A stretch of DNA of 64,000 nucleotides, taken from sequence record PP952733.1; one strand, 5' to 3'. The stretch's first letter is position 1; every line of letters starts with the position of its first letter. The notes under the pieces were generated by a model that searched no databases, was not told where the DNA came from, and saw nothing but the letters and a program-made list of their open reading frames with translations. The DNA is from Escherichia phage vB_EcoM_H12. Below, in pieces: positions 3,783-16,114 of the stretch. The translations under genes were made by a program, and so were the position numbers.

Positions 3783-4364
3783 TCAAGAGTATTTTTTAGG
3801 CAGTAATGCACTGCGCTTGTTACTCTCTTCACTCAATAGTGCGATAAATTCATCACCTTTCCCTTTCCACGGACTGAATGTAGGGATGTGCTCTCGGATA
3901 GCCTCAATCACTGTTTTCAGGGCGTTGTTCTTTAACCACCAATCAGATACTGCCGAAGCTACAATGTAGTAAGCACCATCATCTGTGAAGATTGGCTCAG
4001 AGATACATGGTGAAATCATAGTGGTAATGATAGAACCATTATTCATGTAGTATGTTCTTTTTTCAACCTTGTCAAGCAGTTTATGAAGGTCTGCAAAGAG
4101 ACTTACCACCTCTTTATGGTCAATATCTTTTTCAAGATTTGCCCTGTATTTCAATAGTGCAGCATCAACCTCTTTATCATTGAATTTGAAGTATTGAACT
4201 TCTTCATTCACACATACACTGATGTTGTTGGTGTTTATCGTCAATTTGCACAGTTTGACTGGAGAGTTAATGTTGGTCTGAAAAAGTGCTACACAGCCTT
4301 CTACATTCCCGAAATGTTTGACTAATGTAACTTCTGGTTGGATGTGCTCATGTTCTTCTGACAT
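3783..4364 (-). CDS. hypothetical protein (193 aa)
   Basis: ORF in track. Confidence 0.5.
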   Translation of the reverse strand: MSEEHEHIQPEVTLVKHFGNVEGCVALFQTNINSPVKLCKLTINTNNISVCVNEEVQYFKFNDKEVDAALLKYRANLEKDIDHKEVVSLFADLHKLLDKVEKRTYYMNNGSIITTMISPCISEPIFTDDGAYYIVASAVSDWWLKNNALKTVIEAIREHIPTFSPWKGKGDEFIALLSEESNKRSALLPKKYS

Positions 4365-5791: not shown

Positions 5792-5821
5792 TAGAAAATA
5801 AAAAAGGCTCCCGAAGGAGCC
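5792..5821 (-). terminator. Rho-independent terminator-like hairpin downstream of endolysin gene
   Basis: GGCTCC-CGAA-GGAGCC stem-loop (5806-5821) followed on the minus strand by a T-run (plus-strand AAAATAAAAAA). Confidence 0.5.
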
Positions 5822-5831
5822 TATGAAGATA

Positions 5832-6296
5832 TTACTTTGGATATACACTGTCAAGATAAATGTCAGCTTCCATTCTACGTCTGTTTTTCAAGCCGTTTGA
5901 AGTGACCTTCTTACCTTTGACTGTAATCTTGTTCCACCACTGCATAGCTTCTGCACAACCTACCTTATTACCAGCATTGTGGCGCTTGATAAATGTAGAG
6001 TCCTGCATAGCTGTGATACCAATGTTATATGTTTCACTTACAAGTGCATCGAACTCATTCTGAGAAGTTGGAGCCTTGATAGCTTTGTTCACTGCTGCAA
6101 CAAACTTTTCAACATCTGCGAGAAGATACTGTTCAGCTTGTTCAGCCGTGATTTTCATACCCATCTTAACAGGTTTACCAGAAATACTGGTTGTCCCATA
6201 CCCAATTGTTGGGATTCCAGCAGAGTCTTCGTAAGCCTCTAACTTAAGACCCTCAAAGAACTTAATGGCTTCTAAACCTTTTCTTGAGAGTTGCAT
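5832..6296 (-). CDS. endolysin, GH24 (T4/lambda-type) lysozyme family
   Basis: N-terminal motif LEAIKFFEGLKLEAYEDSAGIPTIGYGTT matches the catalytic Glu / TIGYG signature of phage lysozymes. Confidence 0.8.
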   Translation of the reverse strand: MQLSRKGLEAIKFFEGLKLEAYEDSAGIPTIGYGTTSISGKPVKMGMKITAEQAEQYLLADVEKFVAAVNKAIKAPTSQNEFDALVSETYNIGITAMQDSTFIKRHNAGNKVGCAEAMQWWNKITVKGKKVTSNGLKNRRRMEADIYLDSVYPK

Positions 6297-7429
6297 TATT
6301 CACCTCCTGCTGGATTAACTGTAACTGTTGCCGCATTAGATGTTACCGAACCACCTGCGCCAGTTACTACACAAGTGTAGCTTCCTGCATCAGCAGCGGT
6401 TGCACCTTCTTTGGTGTAAGTTGCAGTAGTTGCGTCTGGGATGTTTTCCTCACCCTTCTTCCACTGATAGCCTGTTGCACCTGTTGCCACAACATTCAGC
6501 GTTAAGGTCTCACCTTCAGTGATTTCTTGATTGGTTGGCTGTTGAGTGATTACAGGAAGAGCATTCACAGTTACTGTCGCTGCATTAGATGTGACTGAAC
6601 CACCTGCACCAGTTACAACACAAGTGTAAGAACCTGCATCTGCTGGAAGCGCACCAGTCTTGCTATAGGTAGCATTTGTAGCTGAAGGGATGTTAGAGCC
6701 ATCTTTCTTCCACTGGTAACCTGTTGCACCTGTTGCAGTCACTTCCAAGCTAATGCTTCCACCCTCATTGATGGTCTGGCTAGAAGGTTGCTTGGTAATC
6801 ACTGGTAGAGCATTAACAGTAACTGTTGCCGCATCTGAAGTAACACTTGTCCCAGCCTCTCCAGATACAACACAAGTATATGAACCAGCATCGGCAGGTA
6901 CTACAGATTGTTTTGTGTAAGTTGCAGAAGTGGCACTGGAGATGTCCTCACCATCCTTCTTCCACTGATATCCAGTGGCGTTATTTGCGATAACGTTTAA
7001 GGTCAGTGTGTCACCCTCATTAACCGTTTGGTTTGTTGGTTGCTGAGTAATTGCGGGTGGCTTAATAGCATCCTTCAGCTTAGCATTCAACATTGAGAAC
7101 GGCTTAACCCTCGCCAACCACTCACAATACACTGTATCAACGTCTTTACCATTGATGATTGCATACTGTAAATCCATGAAGAAATCAGCAGTCCTCATCT
7201 GTGCACCAACACTGTAAAGGAGTTCATCACTAAAAGGGACTTTGTAGTCTGGTTTGTAGTCAAACTTCTCAACCTCTGCAATATCAGCTTCAGGCCAATA
7301 TGAGCTATAGGTGAGTGGTAAAATAGCTTCTTGATATGTTCTAAAATCATATCTCTTACCAGCCTTTACATTTGCGATGAAGCCCTTCACAAATTCTTTG
7401 AAGTCTGGGTAAGTCTTTGCTTTAATCAT
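6296..7429 (-). CDS. protein with N-terminal domain plus three tandem Ig-like repeats (377 aa)
   Basis: Three consecutive ~85-aa repeats (ITQQPTNQ...GYQWKKDG...AGSYTCVV...ATVTVN); N-terminal ~120 aa is paralogous to the adjacent 123-aa protein. Confidence 0.6.
   Translation of the reverse strand: MIKAKTYPDFKEFVKGFIANVKAGKRYDFRTYQEAILPLTYSSYWPEADIAEVEKFDYKPDYKVPFSDELLYSVGAQMRTADFFMDLQYAIINGKDVDTVYCEWLARVKPFSMLNAKLKDAIKPPAITQQPTNQTVNEGDTLTLNVIANNATGYQWKKDGEDISSATSATYTKQSVVPADAGSYTCVVSGEAGTSVTSDAATVTVNALPVITKQPSSQTINEGGSISLEVTATGATGYQWKKDGSNIPSATNATYSKTGALPADAGSYTCVVTGAGGSVTSNAATVTVNALPVITQQPTNQEITEGETLTLNVVATGATGYQWKKGEENIPDATTATYTKEGATAADAGSYTCVVTGAGGSVTSNAATVTVNPAGGE
6299..7072 (-). repeat. 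Three tandem ~258-bp coding repeats (Ig-like domain units)
   Basis: Direct repetition visible in the protein and in the nucleotide sequence. Confidence 0.7.
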
Positions 7430-7797
7430 TTCTTTTTAGCCTCTAAACGTGCGTTTAATCTGAAATAGCCTTTATGTTGTGGAGACACATCACTAACAAC
7501 AATACCTTCAACTTTATAACCCTTACCAATTACATACTGGATATCCATAAGAAACGTACCAAGACCAACAATGTGGAACATTGGGTATAGTAACTTATCT
7601 GAATCTGGAAGTTTGATGTCTGGTTTATAGGTAGGTTGCTCGGCAGTTGGTGTAATATCTTCTTCAGGCCATCTACTCATTCTCCATGTTAAAGGTGATG
7701 AAATAACATCGTTAAGATTGTATTTTTCACCATTCTCCACGGAGCGGATATAGGATTGTAGGAAGCAATAAAAGTCTTTTGCACTCTTAGCCTTCAT
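7426..7797 (-). CDS. hypothetical protein (123 aa), paralog of N-terminal domain of the Ig-like repeat protein
   Basis: Shared motifs KDFxxFxxxxIxxVxxGxxY, WPExDI, YKPDxKxPxSDxLLY, FxMDxQYxIxxGxxV with 6296..7429. Confidence 0.55.
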   Translation of the reverse strand: MKAKSAKDFYCFLQSYIRSVENGEKYNLNDVISSPLTWRMSRWPEEDITPTAEQPTYKPDIKLPDSDKLLYPMFHIVGLGTFLMDIQYVIGKGYKVEGIVVSDVSPQHKGYFRLNARLEAKKK

Positions 7798-7844
7798 TAA
7801 ATATCCTTATAAATAGATAAAGGGGCGTTAGCCCCTGTTGACAC

Positions 7845-8435
7845 TTAAGCTTTGGTCTTAAGTAGGTTCTTAAGCTTTTTGAGATTCATGCTCTCGTCAA
7901 ACTTAAAACCAAATCCATTGACATAATCAATGAACTCGGATTTCTTACTAAGTGATAGTGCGTAACTCATATCAAAGTTATTACTTGTTTCTGCGTCTGG
8001 ACTAGAGTTCACATCAAATGAAATTTCTGTAGGTTCTTGTTTGCTGCTTCTCATGTTATCAATCAATAGACAGGTATAGTTTGCTGGATAGAAGTTAACA
8101 CTCCCGTCAACATACCCATACTTATTATTGTGAATGAGGCTGGAAAATACCTTAAGGAATGTTTCTGCGTCGTGGCATACAAGTTTGAATTGACTACATT
8201 CACCAAGAGCCACTAAAGAGTAAGGACTTTCACTATCAATGTCATAATTCGGATTTGATGTTGTAACCGTCACACGCATCAGGTTATTGGCAATAGTCTT
8301 CTGCTTAAAAGAATTTGGAACATAGTGAAGACCTCTGTCACACTGATTAACTAACTCTTTCAATAGGTCGTTTGCATATGGTGAATTAATTGATACAGAG
8401 CCATCACTATTGTAATTAAAACTTACTGTTAACAT
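7845..8435 (-). CDS. hypothetical protein (196 aa)
   Basis: ORF in track. Confidence 0.5.
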   Translation of the reverse strand: MLTVSFNYNSDGSVSINSPYANDLLKELVNQCDRGLHYVPNSFKQKTIANNLMRVTVTTSNPNYDIDSESPYSLVALGECSQFKLVCHDAETFLKVFSSLIHNNKYGYVDGSVNFYPANYTCLLIDNMRSSKQEPTEISFDVNSSPDAETSNNFDMSYALSLSKKSEFIDYVNGFGFKFDESMNLKKLKNLLKTKA

Positions 8436-8662
8436 TTTTCAGTTCTCCTGCGATTTATAATTTTGCTGCAATAGAGAAACGAAGTAAACTCACTGGAAGA
8501 AACCATTAAGTGTTGTTCACTAGATTGAGCCATTGCCCTGAAATACATTCCAGTCAAAGCATCATAGTGACTATTCTTTCCAATTGAGGTTATATAGCCA
8601 TGACTCTTTGCAGTTTGATATAAATCTATAATATCTGCGATTTCTAATTGGGAACTACACAT
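8429..8662 (-). CDS. hypothetical protein (77 aa)
   Basis: ORF in track; GAGG-type RBS upstream on minus strand. Confidence 0.4.
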   Translation of the reverse strand: MCSSQLEIADIIDLYQTAKSHGYITSIGKNSHYDALTGMYFRAMAQSSEQHLMVSSSEFTSFLYCSKIINRRRTEKC

Positions 8663-9507: not shown

Positions 9508-10923
9508 ATGAGCGAATTATTTAAACATGCGCACCTTCATGCAGGTCGAACTGAAAATGGTGCTGTAAACCATACTTCATCAATGTCTGCTCTGGTAGAC
9601 TTCTACAAAGCCGCTGGCTCAAGCCGTAGCAATGTAGAAATCTTACCAGACCTGTTCTACAAAGCTTTGCGTGAGGATGTTGATGTTGCAGTTCGTATTT
9701 TACTGCATATGCGAGATGTACGAGAAGGTATGGGTGAGCGTAAAGCTTTCCGAACTGTTTTACTTCAAGCGATTGAAGATAAAGTTTTAGAGCCTACACA
9801 GGTTCTTCGCATTATGGATAAGATTGCAGAACTTGGTCGTTTTGATGACTTCAAAATCTTCGTAGGTACTCGTTTTGAGACAGATGCCTTCAAACATTTA
9901 GAAGCAGCATTACTAGACCCTGCAACAGCAGGTTTAGCGGCTAAGTGGTTACCACGAGTAAAACCACGCCACAAACAGTTTGTAAAACGTTTCTGTAAGT
10001 TTGCAAACTTAAGTGAGAAGGAGTATCGCACGCTGTTATCTGCACTGTCTGATACGGTTGAGCAAAAAATCTCTGCTAATGAGTTTGGTAAGATTGACTA
10101 CAGCAAGATTCCTTCACTCGCTGCTGCACGTTACCAAAAGCTCTTTAACCGTAAAGATGGGGAACGTTACAAAGCTTACATCGAGTCCCTCTCAAAAGGT
10201 GAGGCTAAGATTAACGCTGGTGCTGTTTACCCATACGATGTGATTAAATCTATCAAGTATGGTAATGCAGATGTTGCTAATGAGCAGTGGAAAGCACTAC
10301 CAAACTGGATGGCAGAAGGTGAGAACATCTTGTGTATGACTGATGTTTCAAGCTCAATGTCTTGGGTGAATCTTGGTTCAATCACTGCCCTTGATATTGG
10401 TGTATCACTTGCTTTGTATGTAGCAGAACGCAACACTGGTTGCTTTAAGAATGAGTTAATGGTTTACTCAACAAACCCTCACTTCATCGAACTGAGTGGT
10501 GATTTACGAAACCGTCATCGTCAGGTAATGCGTCATGTTGAATACGGTTCAACTAACTTACAAGCAGCTTTTGACCGTATTCTTGAGGTAGGTAAGCGAA
10601 ACAACTTGACTCAGAAAGATATGCCAAGTAAGCTTATTATCTTCTCCGATATGGAGTTCAATCAGGTTGATGGAGCTAACGGTCGTACAAACTTTGAAGC
10701 AATTCAGAGTAAGTACAAAAAAGCTGGATACGAAATGCCACAACTAGTATTCTGGTACTTAGCAAACCGTAATGGTACTTGCGAAGTATCTGTTAAGGAT
10801 AATGGTGTAGCAATGGTATCAGGGTTCTCTCCAGCCACTTTAAAAGCTCTGCTTGGTGGTGAGAAGTTTGACCCAATCAGCATAATGCTCAAAGCGGTAA
10901 TGATTGACCGTTACATCTGGTAA
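9508..10923 (+). CDS. vWA-domain protein with MIDAS motif and long helical N-terminal domain; candidate Ro60-like (TROVE-vWA) protein
   Basis: DxSxS MIDAS motif (CMTDVSSSMSW) about residue 277 preceded by hydrophobic strand; about 270-aa N-terminal domain; TROVE-like assignment is inference from domain layout only. Confidence 0.6.
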   Translation: MSELFKHAHLHAGRTENGAVNHTSSMSALVDFYKAAGSSRSNVEILPDLFYKALREDVDVAVRILLHMRDVREGMGERKAFRTVLLQAIEDKVLEPTQVLRIMDKIAELGRFDDFKIFVGTRFETDAFKHLEAALLDPATAGLAAKWLPRVKPRHKQFVKRFCKFANLSEKEYRTLLSALSDTVEQKISANEFGKIDYSKIPSLAAARYQKLFNRKDGERYKAYIESLSKGEAKINAGAVYPYDVIKSIKYGNADVANEQWKALPNWMAEGENILCMTDVSSSMSWVNLGSITALDIGVSLALYVAERNTGCFKNELMVYSTNPHFIELSGDLRNRHRQVMRHVEYGSTNLQAAFDRILEVGKRNNLTQKDMPSKLIIFSDMEFNQVDGANGRTNFEAIQSKYKKAGYEMPQLVFWYLANRNGTCEVSVKDNGVAMVSGFSPATLKALLGGEKFDPISIMLKAVMIDRYIW

Positions 10924-11088: not shown

Positions 11089-11165
11089 CTCTGTTTAGCT
11101 CAGCTTGGTAGAGCGTTCCGTTTGGGGCGGTAAGGCCGGAGGTTCAAGTCCTCCAACAGAGACCA
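11089..11165 (+). tRNA. tRNA-Pro (anticodon UGG)
   Basis: Cloverleaf folded by hand: 7-bp acceptor CTCTGTT/AACAGAG, anticodon loop TTTGGGG, T-arm GGAGG-TTCAAGT-CCTCC, CCA encoded. Confidence 0.85.
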
Positions 11166-11172
11166 AATTAAT

Positions 11173-11250
11173 GTTCCAGTAGACAAAATGGTAAAGTCAC
11201 CACTCTTTCAAAGTGGATATTTGAGGGTTCAAATCCCTTCTGGAACGCCA
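11173..11250 (+). tRNA. tRNA-Glu (anticodon UUC)
   Basis: Acceptor GTTCCAG/CTGGAAC, anticodon loop CTTTCAA, T-loop TTCAAAT, CCA encoded. Confidence 0.8.
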
Positions 11251-11257
11251 GTTTTGA

Positions 11258-11330
11258 CAGAAGACCAATTGCAGCAAACTTAATCTTATTCATCTGACAC
11301 GAAATCGGACAAAGAAGAGATTTGGTCTGG
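11258..11330 (+). ncRNA. Stem-closed RNA-like element A (CAGAAGACCAAT...TTTGGTCTGG)
   Basis: Terminal inverted repeat AGACCAA/TTGGTCT enclosing about 50 nt; conserved CAGCAA next to 5' arm; one of four related elements. Confidence 0.4.
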
Positions 11331-11341
11331 TCATTAAGAAT

Positions 11342-11418
11342 TGCGGGTATAGAGAAAGGGCGTCTCACATGTCTCATTAGCATGGTATCGGCAGGTTCGA
11401 CTCCTGCACCCGCCTCCA
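11342..11418 (+). tRNA. tRNA with anticodon CAU (Met or Ile2 type)
   Basis: Anticodon loop CTCATTA, T-arm GCAGG-TTCGACT-CCTGC, CCA encoded; first acceptor pair mismatched. Confidence 0.75.
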
Positions 11419-11424
11419 AATTTA

Positions 11425-11488
11425 CAGAAGACCGTTTACAGCAATATTTATTAAATTTTTAGCGGAAAAATTGAAAGATACGGTCTGG
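11425..11488 (+). ncRNA. Stem-closed RNA-like element B (CAGAAGACCGTT...ACGGTCTGG)
   Basis: Terminal inverted repeat AGACCGT/ACGGTCT; compensatory changes relative to elements A and C. Confidence 0.4.
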
Positions 11489-11501
11489 TAATACTAAACA
11501 T

Positions 11502-11578
11502 GGTTAGGAAGCACATAAGGTATGTGCGGTCGCCTGTTAAGCGAATGGCACAGGGTTCGAATCCCTGACTAACCGCCA
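11502..11578 (+). tRNA. tRNA-Asn (anticodon GUU)
   Basis: Anticodon loop CTGTTAA, T-arm CAGGG-TTCGAAT-CCCTG, CCA encoded. Confidence 0.8.
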
Positions 11579-11587
11579 AATTTAAAT

Positions 11588-11675
11588 GTGTCGTTATCCC
11601 GTAGATGGTAGCGGTGGGGACTGTAAATCCCTTGTCATTGAGACTCGGTAGGTTCGACTCCTACACGGCACACCA
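11588..11675 (+). tRNA. tRNA-Tyr (anticodon GUA), long variable arm
   Basis: Anticodon loop CTGTAAA, about 14-nt variable arm, T-loop TTCGACT, CCA encoded. Confidence 0.8.
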
Positions 11676-11681
11676 AATAAA

Positions 11682-11759
11682 GGTTATGTAGTTTAATCTG
11701 GTTAAAATACTCCCCTGTCACGGGAGATGATGAGGGTTCAAATCCCTTCGTAACCGCCA
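11682..11759 (+). tRNA. tRNA-Asp (anticodon GUC)
   Basis: Anticodon stem CTCCC/GGGAG with loop CTGTCAC, T-loop TTCAAAT, CCA encoded. Confidence 0.8.
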
Positions 11760-11845
11760 AATTATAATAAGTATTTCAAAATGATGTTTGAGAGGGCTAT
11801 TCAGCCCCTCCCTTAAAGAGTTTTTACGAGTATTCTTTAAAGGAG

Positions 11846-11918
11846 CAGAAGACCAAATTCAGCAAGTTACTTAAAATTTCAAGCCAATTTAATTTTGAAA
11901 AATTTAAAACTTGGTCTG
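11846..11918 (+). ncRNA. Stem-closed RNA-like element C (CAGAAGACCAAA...TTGGTCTG)
   Basis: Terminal inverted repeat AGACCAA/TTGGTCT; conserved CAGCAA after 5' arm. Confidence 0.4.
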
Positions 11919-11932
11919 ACTCAACAAATTTA

Positions 11933-12064
11933 CAGAAGACCGTTTACAGCAAAACTTAAACAATCTATTTCTCCGGTAAAGAAAAGGCGAAGGTTCGATT
12001 CCTTCACTCGGCAGATGTCGAGTTGGTGTAATGGTAGCACTTAAGATGATAAACAACGGTCTGG
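11933..12064 (+). ncRNA. Stem-closed element D with permuted tRNA-like module (Y RNA-like candidate)
   Basis: Closing stem AGACCGTT/AACGGTCT; inside, in order: T-arm GAAGG-TTCGATT-CCTTC (11989-12005), 7-bp hairpin ACTCGGC-AGAT-GTCGAGT (12006-12023), D-arm-like TGGTGTAATGGTAGCAC; no anticodon arm or CCA. Confidence 0.45.
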
Positions 12065-12065
12065 T

Positions 12066-12209
12066 AATTATCTTTGTAGATAAGTTATTAAGCTTACTTG
12101 TGAGTATGCGACCACAAAGGGTGAAAGGGTAAATTCTAGATTTAAACCCAACAACGCACATCGCTACAGACCTTAAGCAAGTCTGGGTAGCTTATCTACA
12201 AAGATAATT
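12066..12209 (+). repeat. 19-bp perfect inverted repeat (AATTATCTTTGTAGATAAG / CTTATCTACAAAGATAATT) enclosing about 105 nt
   Basis: Arms at 12066-12084 and 12191-12209 are exact reverse complements; inner hairpin CAGAC-CTTAAGCAA-GTCTG. Confidence 0.6.
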
Positions 12210-12223
12210 TAATGGAAGTGTAG

Positions 12224-12289
12224 CAGAATGGTGATGCGGCAGACTTTTAATCTGACAGGCGATGGGTTCGAATCCCTCCACTTCTACCA
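12224..12289 (+). tRNA. tRNA-Lys (anticodon UUU)
   Basis: Acceptor GGAAGTG/CACTTCT, anticodon loop CTTTTAA, T-loop TTCGAAT (T-stem has two mismatches), CCA encoded. Confidence 0.7.
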
Positions 12290-12293
12290 ATAT

Positions 12294-12370
12294 GGTTCAG
12301 TCGCAGATAAGGTAATGCAGGGGTCTCATAAGCCCTATGAATGTGGGTTCGATTCCCATCTGAACCTCCA
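12294..12370 (+). tRNA. tRNA-Met (anticodon CAU), second copy
   Basis: Anticodon stem with three consecutive G-C pairs, loop CTCATAA, T-arm GTGGG-TTCGATT-CCCAT, CCA encoded. Confidence 0.75.
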
Positions 12371-12371
12371 A

Positions 12372-12447
12372 GCTGGTATAGTTAAGAAGGTTATAACACT
12401 CCCCTGATAAGGGAACATCGGTGGTTCGATTCCACCTACCAGTACCA
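12372..12447 (+). tRNA. tRNA-Ile (anticodon GAU)
   Basis: Anticodon loop CTGATAA, T-arm GGTGG-TTCGATT-CCACC, CCA encoded. Confidence 0.8.
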
Positions 12448-12462
12448 ATTTCAATAAAGTTG

Positions 12463-12491
12463 TTGACATTGAGATGTGACCACTTTATAGT
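12463..12491 (+). promoter_or_regulatory. Sigma70-like promoter TTGACA-17-TATAGT inside tRNA array
   Basis: TTGACA at 12463-12468, TATAGT at 12486-12491, upstream A-tract. Confidence 0.55.
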
Positions 12492-12783
12492 AACTAAAAT
12501 ACTTCATAATATGTATAATTCAAACACCAATACATGAGCGTTAGACGTAACACAATGTGGGGAAATTTGTTGTACATATTCTGAATAGTTTTCGTTGCGT
12601 AGCGTCTATTTTGCAAATTTAAAATAAATGCAAACGACAATGTTTTTCTGGCAGTAGCTTGATAGGCTAAACACCAGTGAGGTCTTCCAATCCCTCATCA
12701 AAGAATTTGGCGTACTAGCCCACGGTATGATTAATAAGGTGGGCATCTTTAAGTACTTTCTAAGAGAGTCTTTAAAGATTAAT

Positions 12784-12860
12784 GCACCCTTAGTTCAATT
12801 GGATAGAGCAACGGTCTTCTAAATCGTTAGTTACAGGTTCGAATCCTGTAGGGTGTGCCA
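12784..12860 (+). tRNA. tRNA-Arg (anticodon UCU)
   Basis: Acceptor GCACCCT/AGGGTGT, anticodon stem ACGGT/ATCGT with loop CTTCTAA, T-loop TTCGAAT, CCA encoded. Confidence 0.8.
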
Positions 12861-13001
12861 AATAGTTAGCAGATTGCTTAGACGACCTTATCGGGTCTCC
12901 GTGTAAGGAGGTGGTCTGTATCTCATGTTTCCAGAACATGTAAATAATCTGAGAAGGGGCTTTACAGTGTTGCGAAAATACGGTAAGCTTCGAATTATAG
13001 T

Positions 13002-13084
13002 GTGGGACGATGTTAAGACTCTAAGGCATGAGCAACGGCCTCCAAAACCGTTTCAAAGGGGTTCAACTCCTCCGTCCCATGCCA
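13002..13084 (+). tRNA. tRNA-Trp-like (anticodon CCA), atypical expanded D region
   Basis: Acceptor GTGGGAC/GTCCCAT, anticodon loop CTCCAAA, T-arm AGGGG-TTCAACT-CCTCC, CCA encoded; about 26 nt between acceptor and anticodon stem. Confidence 0.45.
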
Positions 13085-13097
13085 AAGTCTTATTAGG

Positions 13098-13185
13098 GGT
13101 AGGTAGCGGCTAATGGCAGCCAAACAGTCTTGAAAACTGTTGCCACTGTAGAGATACGGTGAGGGTTCGACTCCTTTACTTACCG
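13098..13185 (+). tRNA. tRNA-Ser (anticodon UGA), long variable arm
   Basis: Anticodon stem ACAGT/ACTGT with loop CTTGAAA, long variable arm, T-loop TTCGACT; CCA not encoded. Confidence 0.75.
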
Positions 13186-13340
13186 CCTAATAAGATTTAA
13201 AACCAAGCTTCATTCGGATGTTGCTTTGGTATCCCTCGTGTATTGTCGTACACAAGTAAAGCACCTAGTAGGTGTCACGGAGAAGAGATAATATCAAGCT
13301 CTCCAAAGGTTCTAGTCACCGGATTAAACAAGACTATGCA

Positions 13341-13361
13341 AAGACCTATTTAGGTCTTTTT
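13341..13361 (+). terminator. Terminator-like hairpin inside tRNA array
   Basis: AAGACCT-ATTT-AGGTCTT followed by TTT; AT-rich stem so probably weak. Confidence 0.4.
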
Positions 13362-13440
13362 AGAGGGCTTCTAAGGTTATTACAGCTTGTTGTGGAACCT
13401 TGTTGCTTAGGTTCTTAGAAGTTCTCTAAAAAGATTTAAT

Positions 13441-13518
13441 GGGAGATTGACGGTAATTGGTAAACCTACCATCCTTAGAAGTTGGTGTTTGAGGGTTCGA
13501 ATCCCTTGTCTCCTACCA
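13441..13518 (+). tRNA. tRNA with anticodon UAG (leucine-type anticodon) but short variable arm
   Basis: Acceptor GGGAGAT/GTCTCCT, anticodon loop CTTAGAA, 5-nt variable loop, T-arm GAGGG-TTCGAAT-CCCTT, A73, CCA encoded. Confidence 0.7.
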
Positions 13519-13525
13519 AATTAAT

Positions 13526-13601
13526 GCAGGTGTAGCAAAATGGTTATGCGGCTGACTCTTAATCAGTAAGACGATGGGTTCAATTCCCTCCACCTGTACC
13601 A
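13526..13601 (+). tRNA. tRNA-Lys (anticodon CUU)
   Basis: Close paralog of the UUU tRNA at 12224; anticodon loop CTCTTAA; CCA encoded. Confidence 0.75.
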
Positions 13602-13605
13602 AATT

Positions 13606-13681
13606 GGGGTCATAGTTTATATGGTTAAAATTCGAGTTTTGCAAACTTGGGAACTGAGTTCAATTCTCAGTGACTCCACCA
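13606..13681 (+). tRNA. tRNA-Ala (anticodon UGC)
   Basis: Acceptor GGGGTCA/TGACTCC, anticodon loop TTTGCAA, T-arm CTGAG-TTCAATT-CTCAG, CCA encoded. Confidence 0.8.
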
Positions 13682-13687
13682 ATTAGT

Positions 13688-13762
13688 GCATCCATAGTTT
13701 AAACGGGAAAATTACAGTCTTCCAAACTGAGGTTGAGGGTTCGATTCCCTCTGGATGCTCCA
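13688..13762 (+). tRNA. tRNA-Gly (anticodon UCC)
   Basis: Acceptor GCATCCA/TGGATGC, anticodon loop CTTCCAA, T-arm GAGGG-TTCGATT-CCCTC, CCA encoded. Confidence 0.8.
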
Positions 13763-13769
13763 AATTAAT

Positions 13770-13845
13770 GCTCCTATCGTATAATTGGCTATTACGGTTG
13801 CCTTGTAAGCAACTTATCAGGGTTCGAATCCTTGTGGGAGCACCA
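13770..13845 (+). tRNA. tRNA-Thr (anticodon UGU)
   Basis: Acceptor GCTCCTA/TGGGAGC, anticodon stem GTTGC/GCAAC with loop CTTGTAA, T-loop TTCGAAT, CCA encoded. Confidence 0.8.
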
Positions 13846-13850
13846 ATTCA

Positions 13851-13936
13851 GAGGTCAAGTGAAAGACCGCTTTGAGTCAACTGAAGACCGTAACAAATCC
13901 CACGGAGTTGAGTTAGCGGCACAACTTCAGACCTCT
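13851..13936 (+). ncRNA. Structured hairpin element between tRNA-Thr and tRNA-Val
   Basis: 6-bp closing inverted repeat GAGGTC/GACCTC around about 75 nt with nested complementary segments (TCAACT/AGTTGA) and a GAAGACCGT motif; no canonical T-loop. Confidence 0.35.
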
Positions 13937-13941
13937 TTCAT

Positions 13942-14016
13942 ACTCGCTTAGTTTATATGGTAAAACATCACCCTTACAAGATGAAGAAAAAGGTTCAAGC
14001 CCTTTAGTGAGTACCA
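13942..14016 (+). tRNA. tRNA-Val (anticodon UAC)
   Basis: Acceptor ACTCGCT/AGTGAGT, anticodon loop CTTACAA, T-arm AAAGG-TTCAAGC-CCTTT, CCA encoded. Confidence 0.7.
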
Positions 14017-14017
14017 T

Positions 14018-14095
14018 GTTCCAGTATCCCAATTGGCAGAGGATGCAAGCTCAAACCTTGTACTAGTGACGGTTCGAATCCGTCTTGGAACACCA
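14018..14095 (+). tRNA. tRNA with anticodon CAA (leucine-type anticodon) but short variable arm
   Basis: Acceptor GTTCCAG/TTGGAAC, anticodon stem GCAAG/CTTGT with loop CTCAAAC, 6-nt variable loop, T-arm GACGG-TTCGAAT-CCGTC, A73, CCA encoded. Confidence 0.7.
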
Positions 14096-14100
14096 ATTTT

Positions 14101-14176
14101 GCAGGATTAGTTCAAATGGATAGAGCAACAGTCTACGAAGCTGTTAATAGGGGTTCGAATCCCTTATCCTGCGCCA
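14101..14176 (+). tRNA. tRNA-Arg (anticodon ACG)
   Basis: Acceptor GCAGGAT/ATCCTGC, anticodon stem ACAGT/GCTGT with loop CTACGAA, T-loop TTCGAAT, CCA encoded. Confidence 0.8.
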
Positions 14177-14195
14177 ATTTAAAGAGGCTATTTAG

Positions 14196-14753
14196 ATGAG
14201 ATATTTGAAGTATGCTTCATGGATTTTCTTAGCTTTGTTAGAGCCATTTGCAGCAATCTTAGCAGTTATCTTAGCACCTTTTGTAGTTCCATTCTACAGT
14301 GAAAAGAAAGGACACTTACCTTTCGGCTTCAGATGGATGGAAACATATGACAACCCAATTGATGGTGATGAAGGTCATGTTGAACGATGGGCTAAGATTA
14401 GAAAGATTGGTAAGCTTGGTGTCTATATGCAGAGAGTTGGTTGGCTCTGGAGAAACAAAGCTTATAACTTCTCTTACCATGTGTTAGGAAGAGATGTAAA
14501 AGATGTTACTAAGTGGAAAGGTAATATCAATGTAAGTTCTAACCCTGAAGATAATCAGACAGGTTATCTCCTAATGTGGAACAGTAATGCTTGGGGATTA
14601 TTCGCTTTTATCCCATCAATTAAAGTCTTTGGTAAGCAATTCTACTGGAGAATTTATGTTGGATGGAAACTTAAAAGTGTTGTTCCAAAAGAAAGAGCAT
14701 TCTCAAGGGAAAGAGTTATGTTGGCATTCTTTATTCATCCACTAAGAAAGTAA
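14196..14753 (+). CDS. putative membrane protein (185 aa) encoded inside the tRNA array
   Basis: AAAGAGG RBS; N-terminal hydrophobic helix (WIFLALLEPFAAILAVILAPFVVPF); Trp-rich. Confidence 0.55.
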   Translation: MRYLKYASWIFLALLEPFAAILAVILAPFVVPFYSEKKGHLPFGFRWMETYDNPIDGDEGHVERWAKIRKIGKLGVYMQRVGWLWRNKAYNFSYHVLGRDVKDVTKWKGNINVSSNPEDNQTGYLLMWNSNAWGLFAFIPSIKVFGKQFYWRIYVGWKLKSVVPKERAFSRERVMLAFFIHPLRK

Positions 14754-14761
14754 AGATTTAA

Positions 14762-14837
14762 AGGGGATTAGTTTACAAGGTTAAAACCTCGGTCTTTGAA
14801 ATCGAAGAAGTTGGTTCAATTCCAACATCCCCCGCCA
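14762..14837 (+). tRNA. tRNA-Gln (anticodon UUG)
   Basis: Anticodon stem TCGGT/ATCGA with loop CTTTGAA, T-arm GTTGG-TTCAATT-CCAAC, CCA encoded; first acceptor pair mismatched. Confidence 0.75.
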
Positions 14838-14839
14838 AT

Positions 14840-14918
14840 GCTCCATTACTCCAATTGGTAGAGAGGCCAGACTTAAAATCTGTGTTATGTATCGGTTCGA
14901 ATCCGATATGGAGTACCA
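14840..14918 (+). tRNA. tRNA with anticodon UAA (leucine-type anticodon) but short variable arm
   Basis: Acceptor GCTCCAT/ATGGAGT, anticodon loop CTTAAAA, about 7-nt variable loop, T-arm ATCGG-TTCGAAT-CCGAT, A73, CCA encoded. Confidence 0.7.
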
Positions 14919-14923
14919 AATTT

Positions 14924-14999
14924 AGCGGTATAGCATAACTGGCAATGCAGCAGTCTCTGAAGCTGTCTTATTAAGGTTCAAATCCTTATGCCGCTGCCA
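14924..14999 (+). tRNA. tRNA-Gln (anticodon CUG)
   Basis: D-stem GCAT/ATGC, anticodon stem GCAGT/GCTGT with loop CTCTGAA, T-loop TTCAAAT, CCA encoded. Confidence 0.7.
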
Positions 15000-15030
15000 C
15001 TTCTAAGGATTCTTACGAGAGTCCTTAAAT

Positions 15031-15106
15031 GTGGCCTTATCATAAATGGTAATGACCCATGCTGTGAACATGGTCTATACGGGTTCAAATCCCGTAGGTC
15101 ACCCCA
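15031..15106 (+). tRNA. tRNA-His (anticodon GUG)
   Basis: Acceptor GTGGCCT/AGGTCAC, anticodon stem CCATG/CATGG with loop CTGTGAA, T-arm ACGGG-TTCAAAT-CCCGT, CCA encoded. Confidence 0.8.
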
Positions 15107-15111
15107 ATTTA

Positions 15112-15188
15112 TAGTCCAAGTAGCTTATATGGTTAAAGCGCGTGTCTGAAAAACATGAGAAGAGGGTTCAAATCCCACTGGACTACCA
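15112..15188 (+). tRNA. tRNA-Phe (anticodon GAA)
   Basis: Acceptor TAGTCCA/TGGACTA, anticodon loop CTGAAAA, T-loop TTCAAAT. Confidence 0.75.
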
Positions 15189-15204
15189 ATTTCAAAGGTG
15201 CTTA

Positions 15205-15939
15205 ATGAAAGAGATGACAGAACAAGGTAAGGAGATTTTTAATCTCTTAAAAACTGGTAAAGGGTTATCTAACCCCCTTATTACTGGTGCAGCAGTTCTC
15301 GGTGGAACAGTAGCTGCCTCTACATCACTTGTAAGCTCTATTAGCTCTGTAACAGACCCTACAATAAAGGATAAGCTTATTGCTGCTGGACTTACAACAG
15401 TTCTGCTTAACAGCTTTACCACAAGTCTGACAAGCACTACATCAACTACTAAAACACTGACAGATTACGGTCAAAAGTCCATTGATGAGTTTTCATCACG
15501 TATGCAGGTAGCAAAAGGTTATTCTAATGTTATGGGTGCAGCAGGTGAACAAGTTGGCTGTACACCATTTAGTGGTATTATGGGTGTTGCTACAGAGTAC
15601 GGTCAAAAAGCTATTGACACAATTAACAGCACACTAGACGGTGTTAATGATGTATTAAGTGACTTACAAGACGCTATTGACAAAGGTCTTGATACTATTT
15701 CTGATTTAGCTAACCAAGCTGTTAGTAAGATTAATGAAGGTATCTCGAAGATTACAGCTTATGCAGATGAAGTTGTGCAGATGATTGAAGAAGAAGCTGC
15801 CCTTATTGCAGAGTACCTTAAAACAAATATCAATGGGTTCTTAGCAGGTATCTTACCAGACTGGTTTGATGATGCTTGTAAAACTGGTGTAATTGATACT
15901 ATTGCAACACCAGAGATGAAGAACGCATTACAGAAATAA
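15205..15939 (+). CDS. hypothetical Ser/Thr-rich protein (244 aa) inside the tRNA array
   Basis: Start moved from track 15142 to ATG 15205 (AAAGG RBS) so it does not overlap tRNA-Phe; low-complexity S/T segment. Confidence 0.5.
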   Translation: MKEMTEQGKEIFNLLKTGKGLSNPLITGAAVLGGTVAASTSLVSSISSVTDPTIKDKLIAAGLTTVLLNSFTTSLTSTTSTTKTLTDYGQKSIDEFSSRMQVAKGYSNVMGAAGEQVGCTPFSGIMGVATEYGQKAIDTINSTLDGVNDVLSDLQDAIDKGLDTISDLANQAVSKINEGISKITAYADEVVQMIEEEAALIAEYLKTNINGFLAGILPDWFDDACKTGVIDTIATPEMKNALQK

Positions 15940-15941
15940 AT

Positions 15942-16034
15942 GGAAGATTAACCCTAAAAGGTAAGGGAGCAGTTTGCTAAACTGCCAGTAGCTGAGAAAT
16001 CGGTGTACCAGTTCAAGTCTGGTATCTTCCTCCA
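15942..16034 (+). tRNA. tRNA-Ser (anticodon GCU), long variable arm
   Basis: Acceptor GGAAGAT/ATCTTCC, anticodon stem GCAGT/ACTGC with loop TTGCTAA, long variable arm, T-arm ACCAG-TTCAAGT-CTGGT, CCA encoded. Confidence 0.8.
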
Positions 16035-16038
16035 ATTT

Positions 16039-16114
16039 GAATCCGTGACAGAAATGGATATGTACCTGTCTGCAAAACAGGTTTATAAGGGTTCGAGTCC
16101 CTTCGGATTCTCCA
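16039..16114 (+). tRNA. tRNA-Cys (anticodon GCA)
   Basis: Acceptor GAATCCG/CGGATTC, anticodon stem CCTGT/ACAGG with loop CTGCAAA, T-loop TTCGAGT, CCA encoded. Confidence 0.8.

Follow-up and report, generated by a model that had tools for sequence, protein, structure and literature searches.

Two adjacent genes on the minus strand at positions 6296-7797 of the window, by which we mean the whole stretch of 64,000 nucleotides from Escherichia phage vB_EcoM_H12 (PP952733.1), raise the question of what a protein with tandem immunoglobulin (Ig)-like repeats and a small paralog of its N-terminal domain are doing next to a GH24 endolysin gene. A previous sequence-only reading had placed two leftward genes for proteins of 377 and 123 amino acids at these positions, which proved exact, and it had left the choice between a role in capsid decoration, in envelope binding or exclusion, and in assisting lysis. 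The explanation that best accounts jointly for the findings, and that we consider very probable, is that the source of the window is a Felix O1-like phage, that the 377-amino-acid protein is the capsid decoration protein Hex-Dec and that the 123-amino-acid protein is an old duplicate of its capsid-binding domain (CapBD).

Judging from the nucleotide matches, the source is a Felix O1-like myophage of the genus Felixounavirus: phage E9 showed 96% identity to the window, and 250 Ounavirinae records were matched in a megablast search. The locus lies outside the structural module, directly upstream of the endolysin gene, and this arrangement is conserved in the relatives. All of its features are located on the minus strand. 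The paralog (7426..7797) is preceded by a Shine-Dalgarno-like AAGGA (7804..7808), read directly from the sequence 6 nt 5' of its ATG, and by a terminator-like hairpin (7821..7836) that separates it from an upstream gene for a 196-amino-acid protein. This hairpin is the 5' limit of a three-gene unit consisting of the paralog, Hex-Dec (6296..7429) and the endolysin (5832..6296; Pfam Phage_lysozyme, E 6.7e-41), which is the last gene of the unit and is followed on its 3' side by a second terminator-like hairpin (5805..5822). Both hairpin positions are annotated as terminators in XTG1 and Michonne. Read from the junctions, the stop codon of the paralog and the start codon of Hex-Dec share a 4-nt ATGA overlap, which suggests coupled translation, and the stop codon of Hex-Dec overlaps the start codon of the endolysin by 1 nt (TAATG), with the Shine-Dalgarno sequence of the endolysin located within the C-terminal codons of Hex-Dec. 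We also considered a shared late promoter, which was rejected: no sigma-70-like site was found upstream of the paralog, and CTATTTATAAGGA, a motif local to this upstream region, was not enriched in the window.

The identity of the 377-amino-acid protein is indicated by homology along its full length to two solved structures. In phmmer searches of the PDB it matched 9ncf_S (E 1.6e-288) and 9c2d_S (E 5.5e-173), and it also matched PHROG 3995 (E 1e-210). Its identity to bas63_0124 of phage Bas63 is 89% overall, with 117 of 120 CapBD residues and all of the final 77 residues being identical. By these similarities, it is the Hoc-like head decoration protein Hex-Dec of the Felix O1-like phages, a family that was solved and named in 2025, and this part of the locus is already known. 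We found nothing that argues against the assignment. The CapBD occupies residues 1-122 (7064..7429) and includes R79 and R107, both invariant in an alignment of 15 Hex-Dec sequences; its dN/dS is 0.04.

Cryo-EM structures of Bas63 (9NCF) and Sf14 (9C2D) have shown that a Hex-Dec monomer plugs the center of the 60 pentamer-proximal hexamers of a T=9 capsid (PMC12609058, PMC11821841), and in Sf14 gp20, salt bridges link R79 and R107 with Asp221 in the major capsid protein (PMC11821841). Furthermore, mass spectrometry of virions detected Felix O1 gp36 at 44% coverage. The near-identity to the Bas63 and Sf14 orthologues suggests that Hex-Dec of H12 is located at the same hexamer centers. As shown for the orthologues, a CapBD monomer would sit in the central depression of each of these 60 hexamers, anchored by salt bridges from the two arginines to an aspartate of the major capsid protein, and the three I-set Ig domains are predicted to extend outward as a flexible, acidic fiber (pI 4.4). 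By analogy with T4 Hoc, such a fiber could adhere weakly to a surface or to mucus, or control aggregation, and its role may be accessory and dispensable for plaque formation. The capsid-decoration role that had been left open is thereby established in close orthologues, by cryo-EM as well as by virion mass spectrometry. Most GenBank records and PHROG 3995 instead label the protein a tail protein or major tail protein. The probability that it acts in the tail is negligible: apart from the database labels nothing speaks for it, the orthologues sit on capsid hexamers, and the authors of the Bas63 study explicitly called the annotation wrong (PMC12609058). With the tail label ruled out in the orthologues by the capsid location, we propose that the gene be named Hoc-like capsid decoration protein (Hex-Dec).

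That the pair might serve lysis or superinfection exclusion was suggested by its neighbor, and its conserved position beside the GH24 gene together with the overlapping reading frames is all that speaks for it. Several lines of evidence make such a function exceedingly improbable. Hex-Dec is a capsid protein of the virion, and no signal peptide or membrane segment was visible when the translations of both proteins were read by eye. The i-spanin and o-spanin are annotated about 14 kb from the locus in the Bas63 record. Moreover, ORFs 36 and 37 of Felix O1, the orthologues of Hex-Dec and the paralog, both peak late according to RT-PCR, whereas the maximum for the lysin falls at the middle time point. 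No support thus emerged for a lysis-accessory, envelope or exclusion role, and the adjacency to the endolysin reflects a conserved gene arrangement only.

The domain order proposed for the 377-amino-acid protein was borne out, with a CapBD of about 120 residues followed after residue 123 by three Ig-like domains, on which Pfam, AlphaFold2 and Foldseek agree. Pfam matched Ig_3 (E 1.6e-33), Ig_2 and I-set, each in three stretches, corresponding to residues 124-208 (6806..7060; AlphaFold2 pLDDT >90), 209-291 (6557..6805) and 292-374 (6308..6556), the boundaries of the latter two being placed from Pfam, the repeat boundaries and the AlphaFold2 model. The third is the counterpart of the fourth repeat in Bas63. 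The fold is likewise upheld by structure prediction: AlphaFold2 produced three beta-sandwiches with a pLDDT of 93-97, and Foldseek searches returned titin I67-I69, Robo Ig1-4 and similar chains (E 1e-19 to 1e-22). In the full-length model the N-terminal domain had a pLDDT below 50 because the alignment was shallow, and this model was not used for that domain. Mutual identity among the repeats is 68-73% at the protein level and no more than 65-68% at the DNA level, for which reason we consider them to be old and reject a recent expansion; the 250-bp repeats were not detected by Tandem Repeats Finder.

It has already been published that the number of Ig repeats ranges from one to four across the genus, and our comparison of copy number among the relatives gave the same range. 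In the relatives, the CapBD is found with I-set Ig repeats, one to four in number, with a Big_2 domain or with a Lys-rich tail, a pattern that supports the modular joining of different display domains to the CapBD. An exhaustive profile search recovered just 12 CapBD clusters among 1.84 billion representatives, and the domain is therefore confined to a narrow group of phages. Word-indexed searches for distant relatives of the CapBD returned only close ones.

The 123-amino-acid protein had been described as a paralog of the N-terminal domain alone, and this holds. Residues 2-119 of Hex-Dec align in BLASTP to residues 1-119 of the small protein with 36% identity (E 5e-19), and phmmer matched the latter to the solved Hex-Dec chains (E 1e-13). 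An AlphaFold2 model of the paralog (pLDDT 77, pTM 0.76) retrieved only the CapBDs of 9ncf_S and 9c2d_S from the PDB in Foldseek searches (TM 0.65-0.66, E about 1e-4). The alignments and the predicted model thus indicate a paralogy far beyond chance. The protein ends at residue 123, with no Pfam domain and no Ig-like display domain. It is a full-length member of PHROG 4463 (E 3e-77) and 98% identical to bas63_0125 (gp125); it corresponds to gp37 in Felix O1, gp21 in Sf14 and agp126 in SUSP1.

Of 252 phage records from the genera Felixounavirus, Mooglevirus and Suspvirus, about 232 (~90%) contain the paralog, and in every lineage that has it, it is linked to Hex-Dec with overlapping frames. A divergent metagenomic relative contains both copies in the same gene order, and the frame of its paralog is intact at only 47% identity. 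In the tree, the Hex-Dec copies and the paralog copies form sister clades. Of the local duplication with domain accretion that had been suggested, the modular attachment of domains is thus upheld, whereas a recent duplication is contradicted by the shared gene order in the divergent relative and by the sister clades. The dN/dS of the paralog is 0.14 over pairs with dS of about 0.9, and 73 columns of its alignment are invariant, and by these measures the gene is ancient and under purifying selection. It evolves about 3.5 times faster than the CapBD, with a pI of 8.9 against 5.5. Where Hex-Dec has R79 and R107, the 13 paralogs examined have an invariant G and Q, H or K, and a paralog-specific invariant block, LLYPMFHIVGLG.FLMDIQYV, is found at the R79 site. 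The old duplicate has kept the CapBD fold and bears another conserved surface, with neither the Ig fiber nor the anchoring arginines.

Could the paralog be no more than a relic without function that the duplication left behind? One lineage of natural phages (mio, REP10 and fBSPA4) retains only a remnant of it after an internal deletion, and in the CRISPRi-ART knock-down screen in SUSP1 it was classified as 'Not Fit'. The endolysin was likewise 'Not Fit', however, and the sensitivity of the screen at this locus is therefore doubtful. Since the low dN/dS, the invariant columns and the intact frame in three genera and in the 47% identical relative all argue against decay, we regard a relic as very improbable. 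A chimeric Hex-Dec formed by recombination between the copies in the paralog-less mio and REP10 was also rejected, as the N-terminal domain of Hex-Dec is ordinary in these phages and the paralog persists as a remnant from which about 225 nt are missing internally and which no longer has its start codon.

The evidence on the localization of the paralog is negative throughout. It is not in the list of proteins identified by mass spectrometry of Felix O1 virions, where the filter of at least 25% coverage could miss a 14-kDa protein, and, as far as the text of the VpaE1 study goes, the newly detected proteins of that phage do not include it. For the proposal that virion proteomics would reveal whether either protein is structural, the published data on orthologues place gp36 of Felix O1 in the virion and, with these limits, do not detect the small protein. 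The supplement on Sf14 does not mention gp21, the mass-spectrometry table for this phage covers structural proteins only, and the paralog is not described in the capsid models of Bas63 or Sf14, though both phages encode it. Both papers report a single decoration gene that lies outside the structural module, with no density on the other hexamers, and neither discusses the PHROG 4463 protein or its relation to the CapBD (PMC12609058, PMC11821841). A study of a Citrobacter rodentium Felixounavirus in vivo contains nothing on this protein.

One possibility is that the paralog, too, decorates the capsid, as a plug without Ig domains that either fills the 20 three-fold hexamers or competes with Hex-Dec and thereby sets the density of the Ig fibers. 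The match of its fold to the solved CapBD, the late RT-PCR class that it shares with Hex-Dec in Felix O1 and the invariant surface block of its own at the position of the anchoring loop are in line with this idea. According to the authors of the Sf14 study, the three-fold hexamers differ in the geometry of Asp221 (PMC11821841), which makes a diverged plug conceivable. However, both anchoring arginines are replaced, the protein is missing from the Felix O1 virion list and apparently, from the text, from that of VpaE1, and no density was seen in Bas63 on hexamers other than the pentamer-proximal ones (PMC12609058), where a monomer at a three-fold hexamer would be blurred under icosahedral averaging. 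We consider such a plug unlikely.

Alternatively, the paralog may have been recruited to a target other than the capsid, such as a component of the host envelope or defense, or the endolysin, with only the fold remaining in common with Hex-Dec. The strongly diverged surface, as seen in the pI, the lost anchors and the faster evolution, would be consistent with such a recruitment, as would the lack of detection in virions of Felix O1 and, by the text, of VpaE1. The strict linkage and frame overlap with Hex-Dec wherever the paralog occurs speak against it, as do the late rather than early transcription in Felix O1 and the searches of PADLOC, Pfam and NCBIfam, which gave no match. A target outside the capsid appears decidedly unlikely to us.

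The paralog is probably not a stable, stoichiometric component of the virion. Our best guess, offered only as a tentative inference, is that it serves as a non-structural or transient helper in the assembly of the head or of Hex-Dec. Such a helper might sit at the hexamer centers of immature heads, or it might escort Hex-Dec. A related and rather doubtful idea is that the paralog is a hitherto overlooked second ligand of hexamer centers, a copy of the Hex-Dec plug with neither Ig domains nor the arginines. It would be specific for another state of the hexamer, in immature proheads or at the 20 three-fold positions, and would control where and when the Ig fibers are mounted, as an inbuilt regulator of decoration. 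Binding of the paralog to capsid hexamers, if it occurs, would reveal how the occupancy of a display protein is tuned by a phage, with bearing on the use of Felix O1-like heads as scaffolds for display and on the avoidance of the three-fold hexamers by Hex-Dec. Without a role in the capsid, the paralog would count as a further small accessory gene that laboratory growth does not require.

Among the known decoration proteins, the orthologues in Bas63 (JohannRWettstein; 9NCF chain S) and Sf14 (gp20; 9C2D chain S) share with the 377-amino-acid protein the domain order, the anchors R79 and R107 and the order of paralog, Hex-Dec and endolysin at the locus. They differ only in the number of Ig repeats, which is three in H12 and Sf14 and four in Bas63. 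Phage T5's decoration protein pb10 (5LXK, 8ZVI) has an Ig domain that is detectably homologous (E 5e-12). Unlike Hex-Dec it has a single such domain, its chains match residues 215-292 only, and its capsid-binding domain gave no sequence match to the CapBD in phmmer searches of the PDB. T4 Hoc resembles Hex-Dec in being a non-essential, acidic monomer at the hexamer center with a string of Ig-like domains, and the PHROG families labeled 'Hoc-like' align to the 377-amino-acid protein only from about residue 121 onward, in the Ig region. However, the capsid-binding domain is C-terminal in Hoc and N-terminal in Hex-Dec, and the two domains are topologically distinct with no sequence similarity (PMC12609058). 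Because of the reversed domain order and the distinct capsid-binding domains, T4 Hoc is an analogue of Hex-Dec rather than a member of its family.

The two overlapping minus-strand ORFs beside the endolysin gene, one of 377 aa (6296..7429(-)) and one of 123 aa (7426..7797(-)), match exactly the coordinates of the sequence-only reading, and its proposal of a triple Ig-like repeat protein next to a paralog of the N-terminal domain was wholly confirmed by Pfam, AlphaFold2/Foldseek and BLASTP. Stop and start codons overlap at both junctions, where the shorter ORF runs into the longer one (ATGA) and the longer one into the GH24 endolysin gene (TAATG; 5832..6296(-)). Terminator-like hairpins, which are also annotated in relatives, are located before the paralog and after the lysin. 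Upstream of the paralog is a 196-aa gene (7845-8435(-)) of PHROG 4034, a family of unknown function. Along the whole window the GC skew switches sign near 8-9 kb, 40 kb and 51 kb, a pattern that fits blocks of divergent and convergent transcription, and the gene pair lies at the right-hand end of a leftward block, adjoining a divergent junction at ~8.7-9.05 kb. The Pfam matches of a 193-aa ORF in the same window (3783-4364(-)) to DUF5092 and to the SNAD1 family of AID/APOBEC-like deaminases are weak (E about 0.001-0.003), fall under the gathering cut-offs in both cases and are probably due to chance.

The genomic context is typical of Felix O1-like phages, with a 471-aa DUF2828/DUF7788 protein, annotated as "RNA-binding" or vWA in relatives (9508-10923(+)), followed immediately downstream by 26 clustered tRNA genes (11089-16114(+)). 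A megablast search with 5800-8500 retrieved 250 phage records, the best being Escherichia phage vB_EcoM_E9 (96% identity), and, with one exception, their names refer to phages of Escherichia, Salmonella, Shigella, Citrobacter or enterobacteria. The matched records examined individually were all Ounavirinae (Felixounavirus, Mooglevirus, Suspvirus).

A search of PDB sequences with the 377-aa protein identified the head decoration protein Hex-Dec of phage Bas63 (9ncf_S, E 1.6e-288) and Sf14 gp20 (9c2d_S, E 5.5e-173). Its capsid-binding domain (CapBD), which lies at the N terminus, is identical to that of Bas63 Hex-Dec (bas63_0124, 460 aa; MZ501086) at 117 of 120 residues, and the protein corresponds to Bas63 Hex-Dec without the third Ig repeat. 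The orthologs bind centrally in the pentamer-proximal hexamers of the T=9 capsid, leaving all other hexamers free; their Ig domains, one to four across Felixounavirus species, are flexible and unresolved in cryo-EM, the usual annotation as "tail protein" was judged wrong, and a role resembling T4 Hoc's was proposed (PMC12609058, PMC11821841). In Sf14, Arg79 and Arg107 form salt bridges with Asp221 of the major capsid protein (PMC11821841), and both arginines are invariant in all 15 aligned Hex-Dec sequences. Furthermore, peptides covering 44% of the Felix O1 ortholog gp36 were detected in purified virions (PMC3185647). The 377-aa protein is a member of the Hex-Dec family and shows every defining feature that its sequence can reveal. 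In the orthologs, Hex-Dec was shown to plug 60 hexamer centers via R79 and R107. The 377-aa protein is predicted to carry an acidic fiber of three Ig domains; by analogy with Hoc, this fiber may mediate adhesion or control aggregation and would be non-essential.

At residues 124-374, Pfam matched Ig_3, Ig_2 and I-set three times each (Ig_3 E 1.6e-33), the repeats lying at aa 124-208, 209-291 and 292-374; neither the initial 120 residues nor the 123-aa protein gave a Pfam match. Structure prediction upheld the Ig-like fold: AlphaFold2 modeled the repeats as beta-sandwiches (pLDDT 93-97), and Foldseek matched them to the Ig arrays of titin, Robo and LRIG1 (E 1e-19 to 1e-22). Identity among the repeats is 68-73% at the protein level and 65-68% at the DNA level, a divergence too great for detection in the DNA by Tandem Repeats Finder. 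Copy number does vary among the relatives sampled, with lengths of 210-211, 293-298, 372-377 and 460 residues corresponding to one to four Ig domains, in agreement with the published range. In the AlphaFold2 model of the full 377-aa protein the Ig domains were confident and the CapBD was not (pLDDT <50), from a shallow alignment of near-identical sequences; this echoes the remark of the Sf14 authors that the AlphaFold CapBD mismatches their density.

Since the orthologs have been solved and the range of Ig domains published, this half of the finding, as first stated, was not new. In databases the paralog relationship is only implicit, for example in UniRef labels reading "Tail protein" and in a PHROG cross-hit, and the terms "paralog" and "duplication" and the paralog's gene names are absent from both structure papers (PMC12609058, PMC11821841). 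It is, in our view, a modestly interesting loose end that has gone undiscussed. The two proteins are 36% identical over 121 residues (BLASTP E 5e-19), and the 123-aa protein belongs, over its whole length, to PHROG 4463 (E 3e-77; function unknown) and has counterparts in Sf14 (gp21), SUSP1 (agp126), Bas63 (bas63_0125, 98% identical) and, by the gene numbering of the strain FO1a record, Felix O1 (gp37). A mixed alignment of paralog and CapBD sequences yielded a usable model (pLDDT 77, pTM 0.76), whose only PDB structure matches were the two solved CapBDs (TM 0.65-0.66).

By tblastn, about 232 of 252 Hex-Dec-carrying phage records in three genera encode the paralog and about 20 do not. A remnant with the same ~225-nt internal deletion and a lost ATG start codon is present in mio (L003:2306-2498) and REP10 (L004:2305-2498), and fBSPA4 shares their short gap of about 190 nt (L024:405-598). 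The pattern appears to reflect a single loss, since maintained in phages of E. coli and Salmonella, and the lineage offers ready-made natural knock-outs for probing the role of the paralog. In a profile search, the CapBD occurred in just 12 clusters among 1.84 billion cluster representatives. A divergent 87-kb metagenomic relative retains the order 195-aa gene, paralog, Hex-Dec and lysozyme (paralog 47% and CapBD 58% identical to ours). In a rough neighbor-joining tree the paralog and Hex-Dec clades are sisters, with more distant single-copy homologs outside. In these metagenomic homologs (L019:869-1489; L020:2179-2868; L022:5001-5462) the CapBD carries Big_2, a single I-set, or a Lys-rich low-complexity tail without Ig. 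The single-copy gene in L022 is syntenic, adjoining a lysozyme gene, with DUF5681 and DUF2828 genes nearby; the 185-aa gene that occupies the position of our 196-aa gene there has a faint Pfam match to Phage_Inh_N. From the conserved gene order, the sister clades and the varied C-terminal modules, we infer that a single old duplication gave rise to the paralog and Hex-Dec, and that the CapBD is a module onto which various display domains were attached.

Is the paralog merely a functionless relic? We find this most improbable: its dN/dS over 13-15 phages (Nei-Gojobori) is 0.14, compared with 0.04 for the CapBD and 0.09 for both the endolysin and the strongly conserved 196-aa gene, which identifies a real, constrained gene, albeit one evolving about 3.5 times faster than the CapBD. 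Residues common to both families (DF..F, PLT, WPE.DI, LLY, F.MD.QY, LNA.L) appear to form the fold's core. The paralog has an invariant Gly at the R79 position and Q/H/K at the R107 position, the block around the former is PMFHIVGLG, invariant within the family, versus SVGAQMRTA in Hex-Dec, and the pI is basic (8.9) versus acidic (5.5) for the CapBD. The paralog surface is therefore conserved yet different at one site of a Hex-Dec anchoring arginine. Recruitment to a non-capsid target is one conceivable reading of such a surface, although we hold it to be improbable.

In Felix O1, RT-PCR showed that ORFs 36 and 37 are maximal late (60 min), alongside portal, sheath, baseplate and fiber genes, and that expression of the lysin (35) and ORF 38 is highest at 25 min. 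The product gp37 is absent from the list of virion proteins (PMC3185647); the text of the VpaE1 paper names only gp54, gp58 and gp68 as detected beyond the Felix O1 set, without the paralog ORF40c. The paralog is encoded by Bas63 as well as Sf14, and their capsid descriptions include only a single decoration gene lying outside the structural module and report no density on other hexamers (PMC12609058, PMC11821841). That the paralog, which has the CapBD fold, serves as a minor Ig-less plug on those hexamers is rather unlikely, marginally less so than a non-capsid target. In a CRISPRi-ART screen of SUSP1, the lysin, Hex-Dec and paralog all scored "Not Fit" (PMC11879866 supplement), which is weak evidence for dispensability because the lysin also received this score. 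We tentatively lean toward a transient or non-structural helper in the assembly of the head or of Hex-Dec.

The paralog and Hex-Dec share a fold, but both the Ig domains and the anchoring arginines are missing in the former. Hex-Dec itself falls outside the families of T4 Hoc, in which the domain order is reversed, and T5 pb10, and although its capsid-binding domain is unrelated to that of either protein, it works like both of them.
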